The translations under genes were made by a program, and so were the position numbers. A stretch of 64,000 nt of DNA, from positions 59,396,001 through 59,460,000 of the forward strand of contig NC_043010.1 of assembly GCF_006345805.1 (NCBI RefSeq), in the 5' to 3' direction. The DNA comes from Octopus sinensis. Lineage: Eukaryota. The notes below the pieces were generated by a model. The model did no database searches. It was not told where the DNA came from and saw only the letters and a program-made list of their open reading frames with translations. This document shows, in pieces, positions 21,967 through 61,915 of the stretch. The number at the start of each line of letters is the position of its first letter. Within the stretch, counting starts at the first letter, position 1.

Positions 21967-22449
21967 ATGTTTGTAGTCACAATGAATATGGTAATAGTGA
22001 TGATGATGATGCTGATGACAGTATTGGTTTTTTTTACTGATGGTGAAGGTGTTGCTTGTTGGCAGGGAAAATGGCATTGCTAGTCATTATCAATACACTG
22101 GTGGCATCAACTGCTACAGTTTCTGCTACATTCTTGAAACATTGGTGATGAAGGCAGTGGCACTGATGTGGTTGTTGTTGTTGTTGTTGTTGCTATCACT
22201 GTTGATGGATGGATTACAGGTGTTCTTAATTTTCTACACACGCCATAGAAACTTTATGACTGAAAATATTAACTATTTGTTTTAATTGGTTTTTTTAATC
22301 TTAATTGATTTATTGATTATCATTAAATATAAATTATAAACAAAATTTGTTTGAATACATTTTGATATTGTTTCTGTTTGTTTTCTATTTTAGAAATTAT
22401 TGCAACCAAAACCCAATATCTTCAGTCGAGAGCAGTACTAAGCAGAAAT

Positions 22450-24816
22450 ATGTTTCTATCACTGTGTATAGTACTGTCACTCTTGCATGACTGTCTAACG
22501 ATAGATCTAACCTACCGAGTGCAAGAAGAGAAACCTTCAGGAACATACATTGCAGATATTGCTGCTGACTCAACTTTTTTGGACACTATCAAGTCATCAG
22601 AACAAAGTCTGATAACATTCAGTCAGTTGAAAGAAAAGTTAACACAACTGTTCAATGTTACAAAACAAGGAAAGCTTTACACAGCTCAAATACTGGACGC
22701 TGAGTCTTTGTGTACATATAACAAAAAATGTTTTAGAATAGTCAAAGTTGCAGTTCGAAAAACAAAAAGTTTCACAAAAATTTTGAAAATCAAAATAATA
22801 ATAGAAGATATCAATGATCATCAACCAGAGTTTCCTCTGGAACAAGTCAATATTAAGTTTTCAGAAACAGATATTCAAGGCACTGTAAAATCTCTACCAA
22901 ATGCAATAGACAGAGATCTTGGGTTTCAGAATTCACTTATAGAATATAAACTGAAGAAAAAAGAAGACGAGCCTTTTTCCTTATCTGTTTTCAAAAGAGC
23001 AGATGGCATCTCTTCCTTAAGGATTATTCTCGAGAAACCATTAAACAGAGAAATTCAAGATTCATTTACACTTAGTGTTATTGCCAAAGATGGAGGAACA
23101 CCACCAAAGCAGAGTGTATTAAATGTTGTAATCTCAGTTGAAGATGAGAATGATAACCAGCCTGTGTTTTCCAAACCTTTATACAACATTTCTCTAAAAT
23201 CCACTCATGAAAAAACAAAACCAGTTGTTGTGATATCCGCAACTGATTTAGATCTGGGTGAAAATGGGAAAATTTCTTACTATTTCAGTCCCAAAACGCC
23301 TGAAATTTCAAAAAAATACTTCCAATTAAATAAAGAGACTGGAGAGATATTTATGGTTTACAATTCTCAGTTGGATGGAATAACACTTTCTGAGTTATTT
23401 GTAGAAGCCAGAGATGGGGGTAGTCCACCTCTCAGTTCCATAGCAACTGTTTTAGTAAATGTTATTGACCAACACAACAACCCTCCAAATATTGATGTCA
23501 ACTTTATTTCTTCTCAAAATGATAACACAGCAACCATTCCTGAAGATATTAAAGTCGGTAGTTTCATTGCTTATGTGATGGTCACTGACAATGATGTGGG
23601 ACTTAATGGGCAGGTCAGTTGTGATATCAAACATGACAAATTTAAACTACGGTCAATGGGGTCTAAGGAATACAACTTAGTTCTTGAAAAGCCAATTGAT
23701 AGAGAGACACAAGACCATTACAAAATCACTCTCTCCTGTCAGGATAAAGGTCTACCTCCTCTCGTATCAACAGAAAATTTATCCATCCAAGTGACTGACA
23801 TTAATGATGTACAACCAAAATTTACCAAAGATACCTTCCAGTTTCTTACCTATGAAAATAAAGATAAAGACTTCCCTATTGGTTTTGTCAATGCCACTGA
23901 CCTTGATTTAGGACCAGGAGGTCAACTGACATATTTTTTATCAAACAAGGATAAGCCTTCACTTCCTTTTGTAATTACTAGCTATGGATTTATTTCAACT
24001 ACGATGTCATTGGACAGAGAGAAACATGATGTATATAAGTTCCAAGTGTTTGTGAAAGATAATGGAACGCCTTCTCTCAATGACACAGCAAATGTTGTGG
24101 TTGAAATTTTAGATCAAAATGATAATGCACCATTTTTCACCTTTCCTAGTGTTGACCCTTACAATCTAGATGTCCATTACTTTCCACGAGGTAAAAAAGA
24201 CATAACTGTTCTAAGAGCTTCTGACAGGGACAATGGAAACAATGCTTTCCTCACATATGGATTCTTTAAGGGCAATGACAAAAACCTGTTTGCAATAAAA
24301 CCTCATTCTGGTGTGGTGTCTTTTTCTCGTAAAGTTTACCTGGACGATGCAGGAGCATATGAGCTGGTGTTCCTTGTCAAAGACAGTGGTACACCGATGC
24401 AGTCAGCCACAACTACAGTTTCCCTGACACTCACTGTTAGCAATAAAACATCTCCAATGTTGACAGCTGTCCAGTTACAATCAGATAACTTCATTGATGT
24501 AACACTATTGATTATCATTGTTGCAGCAGCTGTAATAGTATTTGTTGTTATTGTTGTTTCTATTACGCTGTGTATTGTTAGGTGTGTTAAACATGGAACG
24601 ACTACAGTAAGAACAGGGAAGAAACCACCATACAACTCTGAAATGAGACAACTCCTAATCCAAACAAACAATCCAATTGGATTAATGAATTCTGAGAATC
24701 TAATCAGTAGAAATGTTCTTCCAAAACGAACAAAACATCAACTTTATCCTGAAAACTTAGCTCAGAACAAATACAAAGCACCAATTATAACAAGAAATAT
24801 TCTCAAGTCAGCACAG
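22450..24816 (+). CDS. Protocadherin, large coding exon: signal peptide, 6 cadherin (EC) repeats, TM helix, proximal cytoplasmic tail
   Basis: Within ORF 22378-24870; MFLSLCIVLSLLHDCLT signal; Ca-binding motifs DINDHQPEF, DENDNQPVF, DINDVQPKF, DQNDNAPFF, LDRE, AxDGGxPP; TM LLIIIVAAAVIVFVVIVVSITLCIV; acceptor TTTTCTATTTTAG| at 22393; donor CAG|GTAAAT at 24816/24817, phase 0. Confidence 0.95.
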
Positions 24817-25161
24817 GTAAATATTAATAACTACAGGTACAACATATTTAAATTTAATCACTTATGTTGAAGTTAATTCTTTTTAATATTAAATACAAAG
24901 TTTCTAATTTCCTGGACTTTTAAATTCTAAACAGTTTACATTTACAATATTTATAATTACACTATATTTTAATTGGTTCAATCTCTGATTATAATATGCT
25001 GCTTATATAAAAAATATAATAATAATTCATCTGAAACAAGTAATATATTTTAGAAATCTATAATGGATGTTGAAATAATTTCTGATAAATATATATATGT
25101 ATATAGCATAACTTCATTTCAGGTATCAACATTTAAGATTAGCTGAAACAGTTCTCATTAA

Positions 25162-38299: not shown

Positions 38300-38926
38300 A
38301 AGACACCACACAGTACTGGGGGTTTGTACAGTCTGTCAAGTCACAACAAGTACTTTACACAATATATGCACAGTTCCAAGTAGTGCCAATTTTTGCAATA
38401 CACCTAGATTGCAGGGCATTTCTAAAGTTTCCAGATGTTTCTTCAGGTTAGGTAGTATTGAACCCAATGTTCTGATGACAATAGGGACAACCTTTATATT
38501 TGACTCTCTTAGCTGCCACATCTTGGTAATCTCAATTCTCAGGTCTCCATATTTATCAATTTTTTCTCTTTCTTTAATAATAATATATTGATCTCCTGGC
38601 ACTGCCACATCGATTATTGGGCCCTTTTGTTTGTCCCTCCTAAAGGTTACTATGTCCGGCTCTAACACTTTGTCTGTCTGGAAGTCAAAGTCCCAGAGGA
38701 TCTTTGCCTTCCCCTTTTCACCCATTACCTTTTCCAGTGTATGTTGGTACCAAGCACCCGTAGCCTCATATCCATACTTCCAGCATTGCAGCCAGTGAAG
38801 GTCTGGGGGTACCTTGTCATGTCTGCACTTGTACTCTTTCTGTGCAACACTTTCACAAGCTCTAACAACATGAGTCATGCTTTCCCATCCCTTTTCCCAC
38901 ACATTCTGCAGACATTCATTGCAGGG

Positions 38927-38927
<1 letters not shown>
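38300..38927 (-). mobile_element. R4/Dong-like LINE 3' fragment between (TTA)n tracts
   Basis: ORF 38336-38902: RHDKV, ILWDFDFQTD, PDIV, IIDVAVP, EKIDKYGDLRIE. Confidence 0.85.
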
Positions 38928-38962
<35 letters not shown>

Positions 38963-40230
38963 GTTATTATTATTATTATTCAGGCCTTACATCCATTCTC
39001 TCCCTATCAAATCTTCCTCACTTCTCATCTTTCTGACACCCATCCCTCAACCATCCTTCTAACTATGGCACTAATCAGCTGCTACGACAGCAGAATCTAC
39101 ACATATTTTATCCCTATTCTATGCTATCAGTTACTTCACCCGGTTCTTGGAACCACTTCCTTTCAAAATTCATCTCTCATTCTTAATATCACACTTTTCC
39201 ACTTTTTTTCCCACTTTGCTTCCAGTTCTCTCTCAGCTACAACTTAGAACTGCCTTTATTTCCCCTTCGTACCCTTCCAACACTCCCCAACCTTTGTTCT
39301 CCACTCACTTTAGCCACCATAATACACTTCTCATCTCCATCTCCATCACATCTCTCCCAACACCATACTCTCCCTTTTTCATCTCTCCACAGCTGCTATC
39401 CACCCTTTCCTGCACAGCTAATTCTCACCTCCTCCTTCCTCACTTATTTCTTTCATATTTTTCTCCAAACTGACTCTTAACATCAACCACAACTCCTCCT
39501 TTGTTCATTCATCTCTACATTCACCTTTACTACTCCTGCCTAACCATCTGCATCGTCCACACACACACACACACACACGATGATGATAATGTATTTTATG
39601 CATTATGCTTTAAATATATCATGGTTCACAATAAAAATATATATATGTATGCCCTTCTCCTTTAGTTGTTTGCTTTTCACTGTCCATGCCATAATATCTC
39701 CATTTTACAGTATACAAAACCATTTTTCTTTTTGTCTCAAGATGGTGGTAAGGGAGTCCTTCTTTCTCTTCCTCTCTCACTATTTCTGGCCCTCCCCCCA
39801 TCTCTTTCTCTCTGGCCCTTCCTCTCCCTTGCTACTCTCATTTTCTATCCTTTTATCATTGCTATTCTCAGTAATTACACGATACAAAGCAGTAACACTA
39901 CCTTTGCTCCATCACTCCCCTTTTTTCTTTTCATTTCCCAATCGATATTTCTGCATCACATTTAATAAGCAGCTGTCTCTATTTACATTATAATATTTGC
40001 TCTAACCTAATGATTTTCTTGAATTCTTTTTCTTTCTCTTTCCTACCTAAACAACAACACGTTTATCAATTTTATGCTACAAAACCTTATTTTTATCAAT
40101 GTTAATTCACAACAAACTTTGTTACTGCAGCTTCCTCCATATAAATATCTACTTTCTTTGCAACTCGGAAGTTGTTTATACATACATGTAAATGTATGAG
40201 AGTTCACTTACATAAACTCAACAATATATA

Positions 40231-42409: not shown

Positions 42410-42507
42410 TTATATGACGCTGTATTTTACAATCCAGTAAATAATAATAATGGTATTTTTATATAAGCTTAAAGTTTATGGCATTCACCATGCAATGACT
42501 AAAAAAT

Positions 42508-42571
<64 letters not shown>

Positions 42572-43070
42572 ATGTATGTTGTGTAGGTATCAGTTAGAGG
42601 GGTTTAATACCTCTAAGGGATAATTAAATCCAGAGTTGCTCCTGGTTATTACCTGGGTAGGTACAGTCTTTTGTAAGGTTGTATGGTAGCAGGGGGTAAA
42701 CTGAAGTTTAAGTTATACAGGAGAAGAAAATGGATAACATTGGGAAACTCGTGGTTTTCGCTGGTATGTCTTTAATTAATTAGATAACAAAGAGGGAAGA
42801 AGCAGAGATGAAGGTCGCATTAACGATCGTTTCAATTTACTGGTTTAAGTAAATCTCTTCAGAATGCGAATATAGATAGATGGACCGGTGAGGATACGAA
42901 AATAATTGATACATATGTGATGGTAATGTAAACAAATGTAGTAATTCTTATATGCCCCGGTATTAGACTATTTTTTTTAGTCATTGCATGGTGAATGCCA
43001 TAAAATTTAAGCTTATATAAAAATACCATTATTATTATTTACAGGATTGTAAAATACGACATCATATAAC
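42410..43070. mobile_element. PLE-like element with ~90-bp inverted ends enclosing an intact hammerhead (H4)
   Basis: 42422-42507 pairs with 42972-43057. Confidence 0.7.
42815..42869 (-). ncRNA. Intact minimal type I hammerhead ribozyme
   Basis: TCGCATT-CTGAAGA-GATTTACT(taaacc)AGTAAATT-GAAA-CGATCG-TT-AATGCGA: 7-bp stem I, full core, 8-bp stem II, palindromic stem III, GUU triplet. Confidence 0.85.
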
Positions 43071-43095
43071 AAAACCATTTGCACTGAAAGCATAT

Positions 43096-43153
<58 letters not shown>

Positions 43154-48565: not shown

Positions 48566-48585
48566 ACAGGTGATACATGAAGGAT

Positions 48586-50392
48586 AACCAGGTGATACAT
48601 GAAAGAGTCATACCCAATGACTGGTGTAGCAGCATAATAGTCAACTGCTACAAAGGTAAAGGAGACACCCTAGATACAAATAATTACAGAGGTATCAGGT
48701 TGTTGGATCAAGTAATGAAGGTCACGGAGAGGGTCATAGCCCAACTAATTAGAGAGAGAGTCAGTTTAGATGAAATGCCATTTGGGTTCATGCCAGAGAA
48801 AAGCACCACTGATGCTATATTCCTGGTAAGACTGCTGCAGGAGAAATACCCAGCCAAAGATAAACCTCTGTACCTGGCTTTTGTTTACATGGAGAAAGCC
48901 TTCGACAGGGTCCCCCGATCCCTTATCTGGTGGTTAATGAGGAAACTAGGGACAGATGAATGGTTAGTGAGAGTCGCGCAAGCCATGTACAGGGATGCTG
49001 TTAGTAAGGTGAGGGTTGGAAATGAGTACAGGGAAGAATTCCGGGTAGAGGTAGGGGTCCACCAAGGTTCAGTCCTCAGCCCCCTCCTATTTATCATAGT
49101 TCTCCAGGCAATAACAGAGGAATTCAAGACTGGATGCCCCTGGGAGCTCCTCTATGCTGACGACCTTGCTCTAATTGCCAAGTCACTATCAGAACTGGAG
49201 GAGAAGTTTCAGGTGTGGAAGCAAGGATTAGAATTGAAGGGCTTTAGAGTCAACCTAGCTAAAACAAAAGTCCTAATAAGTAGGAAGGTAGACAAACCAC
49301 AAATCCCTTCAGGTAGATGGCCTTGCTCGATCTGTAGAAAAGACGTAGATAGAAACTCTATAAGATGTACCCAGTGTAAGCTATGGACACATAAGAGGTG
49401 CAGCAATGTCAAAGGAAGGCTAACTGGGAAGATAGTTTTTGTATGTGGCAGATGCTCAGGAGCAATAAACACTGAAAATCTGCAGAAAATAACTTTTGTC
49501 ATTTTCCAGGGAGAAAAACCAGAAGTGGTTGATAGCTTCCGTTACCTAGGTGACCAAGTCAGTTGCAGGGGTGGGTGTGCTGAAAGTGTAACTGCTAGAG
49601 TAAGAATAGCTTGGGCAAAGTTCAGAGAGCTCTTACCTCTGCTGGCGACAAAGGGCCTCTTACTCAGAGTAAAAGGTAGACTGTATGACGCTTGTGTACG
49701 AACAGCCATGCTACATGGCAGTGAAACATGGGCCGTGACTGCTGAGGACATGTGTTAGCTCGTGAGGAATGAAGCCAGTATGATCCAATGGATGTGTAAT
49801 GTCAGTGTGCATACTCGACAGAGTGTAGGTACCTTGAGAGAAATGTTGGACCTAAGAAGCATCAGATGTGGTGTGCAAGAGAGACGACTGCACTAGTATG
49901 GTCATGTGGCAAGAATGGACGAGGACAGCTGTGTGAAAAAGTGCCACACCCTAGCAGTTGAGGGAACCTGTGGAAAAGGTAGACCCAGGAAGACCTGGGA
50001 TGAAGTGGTGAAGCACAACCTTCGAACTTTAGGCCTCACCAAAGCAATGACTAGTGACCAAGACCTTTGGAAATATGCCGTGTGTGAGAAGACCAGGCAA
50101 GCCAAATGAAACCATAATCTCATGGCCTATGCCAGGGGCATAACCAGCCCACTTATGCATAACCTTTTCCTTCTTTGGACACTAAAACTCTGCTTGCGAA
50201 GACCTGTTGAGGCAAGTGAAATCAATCAACCAATCAAAAGCAAAATCAAATTTGATGACTGGCGTTCGTGCTAGCAGCTTCCATGCGTATTCATTGCCAG
50301 AGCAGCCAACTGGCTTCCATGCCAGTGGGCACATAGACGGGCACCATTCAAAGATCGTTACGCGGACGTTAAACGATGATGATGGTGATGAT
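48586..50392 (+). mobile_element. RTE-clade LINE, 5'-truncated, RT largely open
   Basis: ORF 48577-49758: YKGKGD, NYRGI, KSTTDAIF, EKAFDRVPR, GVHQGSVLSPLLF, LLYADDL; C-terminal GRPRKTW; tail GGACGTTAAACGATGAT. Confidence 0.95.
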
Positions 50393-53950: not shown

Positions 53951-54555
53951 TGCTCGCTTAAACATTCAAGGGAGGTTGTTGCCAGTGCCGCCGGACTGGC
54001 TCCTGTGCAGGTGGCATGTAAAAAAACACCACATGAGCTTGGTCATTGCCAGTACCGCATGACTGGCCCTTGTGCTGGTGGCACGTAAAAGCACCCTCTA
54101 TACTCTCAGAGTGGTTGGCATTAGGAAGGGTATCCAGCTGTAGAAACTCTGCCAAATCAAGATTGGAGCCTGGTGCAGCCATCTGGTTTGCCAGACCTCA
54201 GTCAAATCGTCCAACCCATGCTAGCATGGAAAGCGGACATTAAACGATGATGATATGTGTGTGTATGTATATATATACATATATATATATATATACACAT
54301 ACATTTATATATATGTGTATATATGTATGTATGTATATATATATATATATATACACACATGTATATATATATGTATATATATATATACATGTATATATAT
54401 GTGTATATATATATATATACATATGTATATATATATGTATACGTGTATATATATATATACATATGTATATATATATGTATACGTGTATATATATATATAC
54501 ATATGTATATATATATGTATATATCTATGTATATATATGCACATATACATGTATA

Positions 54556-57510
54556 TCATCATCATCATCATTTAACGTCCGTTTTCCATGCTAGCATGGG
54601 TTGGACGGTTCGACCGGGGTCTGGGAAGCGAGGAGGCTGCACCAGGCTCCAGTCTGATCTGGCAGTGTTTCTACAGATGGATGCCCTTCCTAGCGCCAAT
54701 CACACTGTGAGTGTAGTGGGTGCTTTTTACGTGCCACCAGCACAGGAGCCAGAGGGGGCTGGCAACGTCCACAATCAGTTGTTGCTTTTTACGTGCCACC
54801 GGCACAGACGCCAGTCAAGGCAACTCTGGCATTGGTCATGTTCGGATGGTGTTTTTTACATGCCACCTGCACAGGTATCACAACTACAATTTCTATTTGA
54901 TTTTTATTTTGATGTTGATGTACTTGACTCAATAGGTCTCCTCAAGCACGGAAGGTCGCCCTACGATCCAAGGTAAGCACAGCAGGCTATCCGGCAAGCC
55001 ATGAACTCACTTCATTTGTTGGGTCTTCGAAGTCACAGCATATCTCCAGAGGTTTCAGTCTTTTGTCATTGCCTCTGTGAGGCCAAACGTTCGAAGGTCA
55101 TGCTTGACCACCTCATCCCATGTCTTCCTGGGTCTACCTCTACCTCGGATTCCTTTAACTGTTTGGGAGTGGCACTTCTTCACACATCTCTCCTCATCCA
55201 TCCATAGTACATAACCATACCAACGCAAACATCTCTCCTGCATGCCACATCCGATGCTTCTTATGTCCAACATTTCTCTCAGGGTGCTTATACTCTGTCA
55301 TGTGTGCACACTGACATTACACGTCCAGCGGATCATACTAGCTTCATTTCTTTTGAGCCTACGGATGTCCTCCGCAGTCATGACCCATGTTTCACTGCTG
55401 TGATTCATGGCAGTTCTCACACATGCGTCGTACAATCTACCTTTCACTCTGAGTGTGAGACCCTTTGTCACCAGTAGGGGAAGAAGCTTTCTAAACTTTG
55501 CCCAGGCTATTCTTATTCTAGTGGTAACACTCTCTGAGCATCCACCCCCAATACTAACTTGGTCACCTAGGTAGCAGAAGCTATCAACTACTTCTAATTT
55601 CTTCCCCTAGAGTGTGATGGAATCTGTTTTCTGAGCATCTGTGGTGTTTATTGTCCCTGTGCATCTGCTGCACATGAAAGCCATCTTCTTTGTTAATTTT
55701 CCTTTGATGTTGCTGCACCTCTTATGTGTCCATAGCTTACACTGGGTACATCTTATGGAATTTCTACCTACACCTTTTCTATAGATTGAGCAGGGCCACT
55801 TACTGAGATGGGGTGGGGTGATGAGTTCGCCTTCCTACTTACTAGAACTTTGGTCTCTACTACATTGACTCTAAGGCCTTTTGATTCTAAACCTAGCTTT
55901 CACACCCGAATTTTCTTTTCTAGTTCAAGCAATGATTCCGCTATGAGGGCCAGGTCATCAGCATAGAGGAGCTCCCAGGGGCAACCCGTCTTGAATTCCT
56001 CTGTTATTGCCTGGAGGACTATGACGAATAAAAGGGGACTGAGGGCTGAACCTTGGTGGACCCCAGAATTCTTCACTGTACTCATTGCCAATCCTAACCT
56101 TACTAACAGCCTCTCTGTAAAGGTCCTTTACAGCCTTTATTAACCATTCGTCAATCTCCAGTTTTCGCATCGCCCACCAGATAAGGGAACAGGGGACCCT
56201 GTCAAAGGCGTTCTCCAAGTCCACAAAAGCAAAGTATAGGGGTTTATCTTTAGCTAGGTATTTCTCCTGCAGTTGTCGGACCAGGAATATAGCATCAGTG
56301 GTGCTTCTACCTGGTACAAAACCGAACTGCATCTCATCTAAGCAAATTCTCTCCCTAATGAGATGGGTTATGACCCTCTCTGAGACCTTCATCACCTGAT
56401 CCAACAGTTTAATACCCCTGTAGTCATTTCTATTTAGAGCATCACCCTTACCCTTGTAGCAGCTGACTATGGTGCTGCTATGCCAGTCGTTGGGTATGAC
56501 TCCATCATGAACTACCTGGTTTAAAATACGGGTGACTAGGCCATAGCCCACACCACCAGATGGTTTAAGCATCTCAACAGTGATTCCTGATGAGCCGGGA
56601 GCTTTTCCTGGCTTCATACCCTTAAATTGCTTTATTTACTAGGGAGCTGTCTATTCAGATACCTGGTCCATCTACTGGGTCAACATTTGGCAGGGTCTCC
56701 TCCTCCCAATCATTCTCCACATCCTGCAGTCTTTCATAATGGCTTCTCCAAGCCTATTTCTTTTCACAATCATTAAAAGCAAGTGCACCATCATCCATGC
56801 GGACACATTTCTCTCCTGTGACATCACAATTTTCTCTCACACACTGTCTTGCTATCCGAAATACCTCGGTTCTTTGGTCCTCACATTGCTGGACATTGGT
56901 AAATTTCTTCTTAGCTACCAAATCCTTCTTTTTTGGATTGGTCTGCTTCTTGGTATCCTTCTGGCCTTGAACCTAAAGTCACTAATGACTAGCCTATGCT
57001 GGGGATTACATTCTTCACCCGGGAGGGTCTTTGTATTTAAGAGCAACCCTGCATCCTGCTGTCTGGTGAGGATGAAATCAACCTGGCCAGCAGAGTCCCC
57101 TGATTGATAGGTTATAAGTTGGCTGTCTGGCTTCCTGAAGTTAGTGTTGCAGATTAAAAGGTTACATGCATCACAGAAATCCAGTAGCCTGGTTCCCTCA
57201 TCGTTTCAGGTGGCAATACAATGGCCACCACGTACCCCAGTGAAGCTACCAGATTCCCGCCCAACATGCCCATTAAAGTCTCCAGCCACAAAGATGAGGT
57301 CATTACCACTCGTCTTTGAGGTAGCCTGTAGAAGGGTATCATAAAAGTGGTCCTTCTGATCATTTGGTAGCCCCACATGTGGGGTGTAGGCAGAGATAAT
57401 TGTAGCTGTGCTGTTCTGCAGGACTAGCCTGAGCTTAAGCACTCTATCACATACCCTAACAACCTCTATGACCTTATCCACCCATTTCTCTGCAAGGAGT
57501 ATGCCTACAC
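54556..57510 (-). mobile_element. RTE-clade LINE (APE + RT + 3' tail), decayed
   Basis: GVGILLAEKW, ISAYTP, AGDFNGHVG (APE); MKPGKAPG, GRSTTDAIF, LLYADDL (RT). Confidence 0.9.
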
Positions 57511-58752: not shown

Positions 58753-60554
58753 AGACGATGATCTCCTGGGGCTAAAAAGCTACAGATTCCATCACACTCT
58801 AGGGGAAGAAATTAGAAGTAGTTGATAGCTTCTGCTACCTAGGTGACCAAGTTAGTATTGGGGGTGGATGCTCAGAGAGTGTTACCACTAGAATAAGAAT
58901 AGCCTGGGCAAAGTTTAGAAAGCTTCTTCCCCTACTGGTGACAAAGGGTCTCACACTCAGAGTGAAAGGTAGATTGTACGACGCATGTGTGAGAACTGCC
59001 ATGAATCACAGCAGTGAAACATGGGTCATGACTGCGGAGGACATCCGTAGGCTCAAAAGAAATGAAGCTAGTATGATCCGCTGGACGTGTAATGTCAGTG
59101 TGCACACATGACAGAGTATAAGCACCCTGAGAGAAATGTTGGACATAAGAAGCATCGGATGTGGCGTGCAGGAGAGATGTTTGCGTTGGTATGGTTATGT
59201 ACTATGGATGGATGAGGAGAGATGTGTGAAGAAGTGCCACTCCCAAACAGTTAAAGGAATCCGAGGTAGAGGTAGACCCAGGAAGACATGGGATGAGGTG
59301 GTCAAGCATGACCTTCGAACGTTTGGCCTCACAGAGGCAATGACAAAAGACTGAAACCTCTGGAGATATGCTGTGACTTCGAAGACCCAACAAATGAAGT
59401 GAGTTCATGGCTTGCCGGATAGCCTGCTGTGCTTACCTTGGATCGTAGGGCGACCTTCCGTGCTTGAGGAGACCTATTGAGTCAAGTACATCAACATCAA
59501 AATAAAAATCAAATAGAAATTGTAGTTGTGATACCTGTGCAGGTGGCATGTAAAAAACACCATCCGAACATGACCAATGCCAGAGTTGCCTTGACTGGCG
59601 TCTGTGCCGGTGGCACGTAAAAAGCAACAACTGATTGTGGACGTTGCCAGCCCCCTCTGGCTCCTGTGCTGGTGGCACGTAAAAAGCACCCACTACACTC
59701 ACAGTGTGATTGGCGCTAGGAAGGGCATCCATCTGTAGAAACACTGCCAGATCAGACTGGAGCCTGGTGCAGCCTCCTCGCTTCCCAGACCCCGGTCGAA
59801 CCGTCCAACCCATGCTAGCATGGAAAACGGACGTTAAATGATGATGATGATGATATACATGTATATGTGCATATATATATATACATAGATATATACATAT
59901 ATATATACATATGTATATATATATATACACGTATACATATATATATACATATGTATATATATATATATACACATATATATACATGTATATATATATATAC
60001 ATATATATATACATGTGTGTATATATATATATATATATACATACATACATATATACACATATATATAAATGTATGTGTATATATATATATATATGTATAT
60101 ATATACATACACACACATATCATCATCGTTTAACGTCTGCTTTTCATGCTAGCATGGGTTGGACGATTTGACTGAGGTCTGGCAAACCAGATGGCTGCAC
60201 CAGGCTCCAATCTTGATTTGGCAGAGTTTCTACAGCTGGATACCCTTCCTAACGCCAACCACTCTGAGAGTATAGAGGGTGCTTTTACGTGCCACCAGCA
60301 CAAGGGCCAGTCATGCGGTACTGGCAATGACCAAGCTCATGTGGTGTTTTTTTACATGCCACCTGCACAGGAGCCAGTCCGGCGGCACTGGCAACAACCT
60401 CCCTTGAATGTTTATCACATGCCACCGGCACATGTGCCAGTAAGGGGATGCTGGTAACAATCTAAATGTATACATACATATATGTATGTATATATACATA
60501 TATATATCTATGTTGATCAGATTGGGGCCTGGTGGACCCTCCTGGCTTCCCAGG

Positions 60555-61915
60555 CAAATGGTGACCTGTTGTATTTATAGAGTCCTTTATGTGTCTCAAT
60601 TGTTAGATATTTAGAGCATTCACTGTCTTCTCTAATTTGTAGGTATGCATCAGATAGATCCAATTTAGAAAATACCTTGCTTCCATTTAATTTTGCAAGA
60701 ATATCCTCTGGAGTAGGTAGCAAGTAGTGGCTTCTTTTAAGACATTCATTTAAACCAGTGGAAAAACCAGCAGACACTCTGATTTTGTCCCTCTTTTTCT
60801 TAACATGCACAGTTGGTGAGGCCCATTGACTATATTCCATTTTTTGAATAACTTCAATTTTTTCTAGTCTCCCTTAAATTAATCTGTTCTAATGATGTGA
60901 ATGGTACAGTTTGTTTTTGTTTAAATACTGGTATGGTATTTTCTTTTATTTGAAACCATGCCTTCATCTTGGTACACAGACCTAATTTATCAGTCAGAAC
61001 TTCAGGAAAAATACTTTTTAATTTCTATTTTTTCAATTCATTTGATGACTTACGATAACTGAAGGAAAGACCATTCACATTTTTACAGAAAATATGGGGA
61101 GGTCCCATAAGTTAAATAATTCCATCCAGTTAGTTCTGAATAAATTTGTGGCATTATTTAACACAAAAACTTTAGCTTTTAAGGGTTTTTTTTCATGAAA
61201 TGTAATGTTACTTATCAATTTTCCCTTAAAATATAACTTTTTTTCCTGAAACACCATGGGCAATATTTGAAGTTTCATTTAATTTAGGTTTCCCAGTTTT
61301 TTAAATGTATCTGTTAATTATTGACATACTACTGCCTGTATCCAATTATAACTTCACATTTGTGTTATTAATTTTTACATACGCAAATTTCCTTTAAGGT
61401 TCATTTGTATTTTTGTCAACAATAATCCAGTTATGTGAATTTTTTTCTATTGAGCTGTTTTTTAGGATCTGTCCTAGGGTGACTTTTTGTGGCCTATTTT
61501 ACCACACTTCAAGCTATTTATATTTTTAAATGAACAGTTATTTTTTAAATGTAAACCATTGTACCCATAACATGAATTCAGTCTTGACAGTTTTTGTTAT
61601 CCAATACCAACTGACACACTTGAACATGAGAGCAATCTTTCTCTTCAATTTTAATTGCATCATGTCGTAGATTTATAATCATCAGACATTCTGTTATGGC
61701 TTGCAGAGTTAAATTCTGGTCCTGTTCTAAAACGTATATCTGCGTCTTTGTTTGCAGTAAGCCCCTGAACAAAAATTAAACACTTGAACATGTCCAGGGT
61801 CAACTCATTCAATTTGAAATTCTCACACTTTCTGTTAACCGCTCTGGCATAGGTGACGAAAGCTTCATAATCTTTTTTCACCAAATTCAAACATTGCCAG
61901 TGAGTATTGAACAGT
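60555..61915 (-). mobile_element. Gypsy/Ty3 LTR-retrotransposon relic (gag, protease, RT start)
   Basis: WQCLNLVK...FKCLIFVQGL (gag-like), LDTGS (protease), SQWASPTVHVKK, FSKLDLSDAYLQI, THKGLYKYNRSPF (RT). Confidence 0.85.

Follow-up and report, generated by a model that had tools for sequence, protein, structure and literature searches.

A decayed minimal hammerhead motif in a truncated Penelope-like element with Hydra-clade motifs, lying in a MITE-like repeat of the octopus protocadherin array

The window analysed here is a stretch of 64,000 nucleotides from Octopus sinensis, whose genome (2.72 Gb, about 30 large contigs) carries protocadherin arrays. On its plus strand the window contains an 834-aa protocadherin-type exon (22366-24870, Pfam Cadherin), part of a long same-strand array on contig C14, the next listed exon lying ~90 kb downstream. 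Between the listed exons at C14 59,418,501 and 59,509,166, a minimal type I hammerhead motif is found on the minus strand (42815..42869), antisense to every protocadherin exon listed in the interval 59.10-60.71 Mb of C14. The motif lies in a fragment (42581..42953, minus strand) that appears to be the 5'-truncated pseudo-LTR of a Penelope-like element (PLE) of Hydra type and consists of 3' UTR, ribozyme and tail; a (CA)/(TA)25 microsatellite (42507..42580) adjoins the 3' end of the element. Four further stretches of the window, 48574-49758 (plus strand), 55958-56635, 38336-38986 and 60517-60873 (all minus strand), have motifs that we take to be those of other retroelement reverse transcriptase (RT) or nuclease fragments. 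The stretches 54202-55606 and 58803-60171 have near-identical translations, possibly reflecting a local duplication or an assembly repeat.

The motif carries all core letters of a minimal type I hammerhead, as the initial annotation had stated. Read on the minus strand, it is composed of a 7-bp stem I (42869-42863 with 42821-42815), the core segment CUGAAGA (42862-42856), an 8-bp stem II (42855-42848 with 42841-42834) with a 6-nt loop and a G10.1-U11.1 wobble closing its base, and the segment GAAA (42833-42830), all of which had been read correctly, and the core conforms to the hammerhead pattern of CUGANGA, GAAA and UH. G16.2, U16.1 and U17 correspond to 42824, 42823 and 42822, and the predicted cut after GUU, between 42822 and 42821, had likewise been placed correctly. 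The statement that all three stems are present held for stems I (open-ended) and II, both of which occur in the minimum free energy (MFE) fold, and failed for stem III, which in the predicted monomer fold is limited to 2 bp around GAUC, with a pairing probability of 0.047 for A15.1-U16.1. Co-folding predicts that stem III forms in trans between two RNAs through an 8-nt palindrome reaching from A15.1 to U16.1 (42823..42830, minus strand). In the window copy the self-complementary stretch is a 10-mer that also takes in A14 and U17, both of which are required to be unpaired.

A strict descriptor found the motif once in the window and in none of 200 dinucleotide shuffles, and a palindromic-stem-III descriptor found no second palindromic hammerhead in the 64 kb. 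The idea that the motif arose by chance in AT-rich DNA could draw on a loose core-only pattern, which was at chance level (9 matches against 7.09 expected), and on Rfam: the scan that the initial annotation had called for was run and returned no hammerhead in the window, either at the gathering score or at E<=10, where only microsatellite-driven miRNA matches appeared. The fold z-scores, -2.5 at 55 nt and -1.2 at 86 nt, were modest. This idea is refuted, and retains next to no probability, by the shuffles, by a position that is the one expected for the pseudo-LTR of a PLE, and by the exact 21-nt 3' half of the ribozyme, which has 104 matches in the genome (101 with A17, that is GUA, and 3 with U17, that is GUU) against 0 for reversed controls. 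The window motif is thus a genuine type I hammerhead motif. Cleavage activity is predicted only for a palindrome-linked dimer, and the dimer conditions proposed in the initial annotation were apt.

The 400 bp around the motif proved to be a dispersed repeat with 579 candidate matches in the genome, 40 of which were scored at 80-88% identity (self-match aside). Family copies have ragged 5' ends and fixed 3' ends, the latter falling into two clusters about 135 nt apart, near 42714 (short) and 42581 (long) in window coordinates. The segment between them (42581..42713, minus strand) would be a tail of ~130-140 nt, which leads into the start of the next ORF in tandem copies. A TA run was present within 24 nt past the end in 59 of 70 pieces ending at either cluster, the microsatellite next to the window copy being the family's usual target signature; insertion into (TA)n, a mark of the Hydra clade, was therefore seen here as well. 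Among 78 insertion sites, 18 had pieces on both strands and 17 of these 18 had outward-facing 3' ends, an arrangement matching the inverted 5' pieces that have been reported from PLEs (PMC8557442). The ribozyme core starts 549-622 nt past the ORF stop in four of five copies measured (the fifth was not parsed), and in the copy L117 an ATG follows 63 nt beyond the long 3' end; the ribozyme would therefore sit in the pseudo-LTR, ~300 nt before the next ORF in a tandem arrangement. With ~3.5 kb from the ATG to the 3' end in L117 and a period of 5,597 bp in its sister L111, these elements exceed the length of <3 kb towards which Hydra-clade elements tend, a tendency that is not strict in the paper describing the clade.

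Many copies of the family are short and non-coding, type I hammerheads are carried by retrozymes, and an origin of retrozymes from PLE pseudo-LTRs has been proposed in the available text of a preprint (bioRxiv 10.64898/2026.07.22.740005), all of which would suit a window element that is the monomer of a non-LTR retrozyme, non-coding and spread by circular RNA. We consider this very unlikely, as no head-to-tail array exists at the window locus, no fixed monomer length is seen, and the ragged 5' ends of longer copies continue into a nuclease ORF.

This ORF, into which the longer copies run upstream, is broken and ends in a GIY-YIG-type nuclease preceded by an RT; the order of RT and C-terminal nuclease was seen when the intact ORF of a sister family was compared with own-family copies by tblastn, domains being called by motif. 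RWK was found in L121 and L120 and DKT in L115, and the remaining RT and nuclease motifs were read by eye as FDITMG..GLYRDD, a CxCx5C linker, VVYQC..YIG, CxLC and CxH, with no CCHH. The Hydra clade is defined by RWK, DKT, CxCx5C, CxxC and CxH in the text available to us (PMC8557442), and the motifs of the element agree by eye with the Hydra alignment published there. We therefore assign the element to the Hydra clade of PLEs, an assignment made by motifs and not by a tree. Assignment to Naiad was considered and rejected, the nuclease being C-terminal and the motifs fitting Hydra. Pfam returned no RT or GIY-YIG family match for seven element proteins, and a search with the longer proteins gave one unnamed match among 1,691 candidates. 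No intact ORF was present among the own-family copies examined, in which matches of at least 74% identity had open frames of 97-428 aa.

The fragment is flanked by two inverted arms (42410-42506 and 42973-43069) of 97 nt that are 95% identical (92/97). The initial annotation had placed the motif inside a ~650-bp unit with ~90-bp inverted ends; the arms do exist, and the single unit dissolves, since they belong to an unrelated family that is MITE-like by anatomy. This high-copy family, to which loci L062-L080 belong, has ~160-170-bp inverted ends, lies in (TA)n and measures ~410-430 bp when whole. On the plus strand of the window, the right terminal inverted repeat spans 42947..43096 (1,511 candidates, 40 scored) and the left arm, cut at both ends, spans 42410..42506, the labels left and right being biased by the query. 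The retroelement fragment and the arm meet at a 5' junction with microhomology of 6 of 7 nt (42947..42953). An independent contig from sequencing run X1 bridges this junction (42907-43016, 2 differences), and the junction is therefore not an assembly artefact.

If the ribozyme were the cargo of a mobile 650-bp unit with 90-bp terminal inverted repeats, arms and ribozyme should travel together, and the likeness of the arms might seem to point that way: at 92/97 it exceeds the arm-to-arm identity of 14 other MITE copies (82-92.5%), and both window arms carry a rare AA, an arm variant with four exact matches in the genome, the window one included. A young MITE would account for such likeness, and so would an inverted duplication that arose on insertion. 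The cargo reading is contradicted by the copies themselves and is extremely unlikely: the MITE arm occurs in 0 of 68 other ribozyme-covering pieces and the ribozyme unit in 0 of 19 other MITE loci, the core of whole MITE copies is a different one, in the place of which the retroelement fragment stands at the window locus, and the left arm has no outer terminus.

The window copy was compared with 41 other copies, 25 of them chosen by overall similarity and 16 via the upstream nuclease; 27 rows chosen by the ribozyme pattern, and the window copy itself, were left out of this set. Position 17 (42822, minus strand), which is U in the window copy, is A in 40 and G in one of the 41, and a private G at 42816 (minus strand), present in 0 of 41, stretches stem I from the 5 bp of the family to 7 bp. 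The family form is thus a GUA site with a 5-bp stem I, and the motif had been called fully intact on account of letters that are private changes: its intact-looking 7-bp stem I, 10-nt palindrome and GUU result from two substitutions, each found in none of the other 41 copies. Over 373 columns, 11 letters in total are private to the window copy, which is the level of ordinary decay. Variants common to more than two copies were absent from the core (0/528 letters), frequent in loop II (40/239) and present outside (537/10,061), and position 11.1 alternates between C (18 copies) and U (22 copies), both of which pair with G10.1. This pattern suggests that the ribozyme was under selection in the source lineages, with the reservations that the copies are not independent and that rare variants alone differ little between core (10/528) and outside (340/10,061). 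In an older subfamily (L117), stem II differs while the core, the palindrome and A17 are retained. Among the copies, the more frequent variants within stem III (42824-42829) and stem I (42867-42868) are C-to-T and G-to-A changes at CpG, as expected for methylation decay after insertion. Contigs from 4 of 24 sequencing runs were compared with the window, and every one over 42822 carries A17. None of them was attributed to the window locus, and they therefore neither confirm nor refute U17, which rests on the assembly.

Co-folding gave a high probability of stem III in trans (A15.1:U16.1) for the window copy (0.98) and for two GUA copies (0.92). For the two GUA copies, the MFE structure of the 55-nt dimer was exactly the active double hammerhead; with 86-nt flanks the MFE was no longer the active form, trans stem III still having a probability of 0.91-0.92. 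Position 17 is predicted to be unpaired in the dimer with a probability of 0.99 in the GUA copies against 0.14 in the window copy, where U17 pairs with A14 of the partner (0.85). The closed form of the window-copy dimer was predicted at -33.2 kcal/mol and the active form at -30.8 kcal/mol, a gap of 2.4 kcal/mol that could be overcome, nearest-neighbour energies leaving aside Mg2+ and tertiary contacts. U17 is thus predicted to stabilise a closed, inactive dimer. In the order of NUH cleavage sites GUU stands below GUA (PMC8879150, as far as its text was available). Published Hydra ribozymes, the octopus one included, commonly have U17 (PMC8557442, File S2), and GUU is therefore not disabling by itself; the longer stem I of the window copy could even help. 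On account of the closure by 2.4 kcal/mol and the place of GUU in the NUH order, the window copy is predicted to be a worse cleavage target than its GUA sister copies, and not the best direct experimental target that it had been proposed to be.

These predictions bear on whether the window copy might still be functional, and possibly co-opted, as a ribozyme cutting a minus-strand RNA of the protocadherin cluster and pairing in trans with whatever RNA has an identical palindrome. Its core letters and both stems are intact, with a stem I longer than that of the family, its palindrome is common to other families, and the X1 contig spans the locus junction at a depth of 3.9, from a library guessed to be RNA. 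The library type is indeed a guess and contigs are strandless; moreover, the motif is antisense to the listed protocadherin exons, its private letters are at the level of ordinary decay, and the predicted U17-A14 pairing would close the site. We therefore regard this reading as very improbable.

With high confidence, we interpret the window element as a 5'-truncated PLE with Hydra-clade motifs that lies at (TA)n inside a MITE-like repeat and carries a minimal type I hammerhead in its pseudo-LTR; the active family likely cut its own RNA as a palindrome-linked dimer, and the window copy is predicted to cut poorly and is likely idle in vivo. As predicted by folding, two family RNAs would pair via the 8-nt palindrome to form a double hammerhead, and in the window copy the pairing of U17 with A14 would close the cut site. 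By analogy with published PLE biology, read-through RNA from tandem copies may be cut ~300 nt before the ORF start, yielding unit-length RNA, a step in which the element's protein probably helps; the nuclease would then nick (TA)n, and reverse transcription may begin at either of two internal positions, which would produce the two 3' ends, short and long. At the window locus, early 5' joining via microhomology may have removed the MITE core. Under this interpretation the ribozyme of the family probably trimmed tandem transcripts and the window copy would be a relic. Published work, as far as its text was available, provides the frame for these steps: metazoan minimal hammerheads did not cleave as single motifs and cleaved weakly as dimers (PMC4209133), and the PLE ribozyme of the green anole required its protein for cutting, with RT initiating at two internal positions (PMC11167929), a behaviour that would account for the two 3' ends of the present family. 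Mutants of the anole ribozyme left insertion in vitro unaffected (PMC11167929).

To estimate abundance, 60 evenly placed 10-kb stretches (599,800 bases) were searched with the palindromic-stem-III descriptor. Five hammerheads were found (40 shuffles gave 0.025 on average, the reversed sequence none), corresponding to a density of ~8 per Mb, to ~0.5 per 64-kb window and to 22,700 genome-wide (95% interval 7,400-52,900). Hammerheads of the window kind are thus common in this genome, with an estimated number in the tens of thousands. Four of the five sampled hammerheads have 60-77 nt between the core halves, in the helix II region; the three of these four that were scanned with Rfam were all missed, and at the gathering score no hammerhead match was obtained at ten loci with related ribozymes. 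Two long-helix families that were followed up have 2,216 and 2,511 candidates in the genome, and in one fetched copy of each a Hydra-type nuclease lies upstream, in sense. When 12 long-helix representatives were folded, an extended helix II was predicted in all 12 and trans stem III was favoured (P>0.5) in only 7; the dimer model is therefore not uniformly predicted.

A young Hydra-type family with an intact 960-aa ORF is represented by L111 (2749-5628, plus strand) and L112 (2693-5572, minus strand), copies that are 98.7% identical and have a tandem period of 5,597 bp; its hammerhead has 85 nt between the core halves, a palindromic stem III and a position 513 nt before the ATG. A second family with long open frames (914-923 aa), like the first a sister family with intact ORFs, is found at L113 (2788-5556, minus strand) and L114 (2389-5130, plus strand) and has many genome matches at 55% identity; it has a version with a 55-nt helix II and a nuclease linker without CxCx5C, and L114 carries an inverted 209-bp 5' piece. 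Many further hammerhead families have 51-85 nt between the core halves; they lie on the plus strand at L209 (7866), L009 (148) and L025 (2205) and on the minus strand at L163 (7177), L196 (9993), L213 (7618), L036 (541), L071 (2889), L120 (868), L134 (981) and L008 (1292). Their stem III palindromes are of at least six types.

The core search of Craig et al. used a 7-17-nt spacer in addition to relaxed structure descriptors (PMC8557442). In a literature search on octopus and cephalopod hammerheads, on long helix II and on Hydra with Octopus since 2021, Craig et al. 2021 proved to be the one relevant paper; the search did not extend to articles under subscription, to Repbase/Dfam or to supplements of bioRxiv preprints. 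Prior description of the long-helix-II variants was not found in this literature; the work of Lunse et al. on dimer-cleaving PLE hammerheads, also outside the scope, may already contain them. As a separate matter, long-helix-II ribozymes were considered as the source of the Naiad 'HHR_half_core' entries, an idea that was unsupported: six 11-nt strings are absent from the available supplement (PMC8557442), and the two followed-up families have a Hydra-type nuclease upstream.

Tentatively, and with somewhat more doubt than belief, we put forward that the octopus genome holds an undescribed radiation of Hydra-clade PLEs with on the order of 20,000 intact-looking hammerheads, most of which would combine a 50-85-nt helix II stem-loop with an 8-nt palindromic stem III and would be missed by Rfam and short-spacer descriptors. 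The palindromes, of at least six types, might allow pairing and cutting only with a matching palindrome and so act as a family-recognition code, and L111/L112 would provide the first workable Hydra system.

By itself the window motif is of minor importance: hammerheads of PLEs have been described from many animals, an octopus Hydra family with a ribozyme has been published, and the window copy is a decayed fragment. Its hammerhead is real, but both the ribozyme class and the transposon clade are known ones, and only the family is new. What it does provide is a naturally occurring test of the dimer model that turns on one base (A17 against U17). The wider value lies in the many families, the long-helix-II variants and the intact young copies that this genome appears to hold, which could serve for testing cleavage, partner choice and (TA)n targeting; the role of hammerheads in PLEs is unsettled, and Hydra elements are known from few families. 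The long-helix-II families and young intact elements are better targets than the window copy.

Several known systems resemble the one described here, and the following comparisons refer to the available text of each source. With non-LTR retrozymes (PMC7229834; bioRxiv 10.64898/2026.07.22.740005) it shares the occurrence of type I hammerheads in repeats of animals; those elements form tandem monomers of fixed length, whereas the window element is the truncated end of a coding element. Poseidon PAc of the green anole (Frangieh et al. 2024, PMC11167929) likewise has a pseudo-LTR ribozyme near the ORF start and two 3' ends defining a tail, but belongs to another clade and is cut 26 nt inside the ORF, compared with ~300 nt upstream of the ATG here. 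The minimal hammerheads of Cervera and De la Pena (2014, PMC4209133) have in common with the window family the type I topology, a helix II of 7-8 bp, a helix I of 4-5 bp (5 bp in the family, 7 bp in the window copy), a palindromic 15.2-16.2 region with loop 3, the location in pseudo-LTRs, the predominance of single truncated copies and the predicted dimer. The palindrome of the window family, at 8 nt, is longer than theirs, and two features that are typical of them without being obligatory differ, namely the bulged base between A9 and G10.1, absent from the helix II fold of the window copy, and the G10.1-C11.1 pair, replaced by G-U in the window copy and in 22 of 40 relatives. With the Hydra-clade PLEs, including Hydra-1_Obim (Craig et al. 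2021, PMC8557442), the elements share a C-terminal GIY-YIG nuclease, RWK, DKT, the CxCx5C linker, CxxC and CxH replacing CCHH, (TA)n targets, a hammerhead near the 3' end and inverted 5' pieces. The ribozyme of Hydra-1_oBim differs in stems, loop and palindrome, placing the window copy in a different family, and the 11-nt core-palindrome string of the latter is absent from the available supplement (PMC8557442), in which line breaks could hide a match. Hydra PLEs are described there as 'generally <3 kb', with a tail of 30-40 bp for PLEs; in contrast, the units found here are longer, the tail of the window family measures ~140 nt, and copy numbers, unlike those in the Hydra description, reach hundreds to thousands per family.
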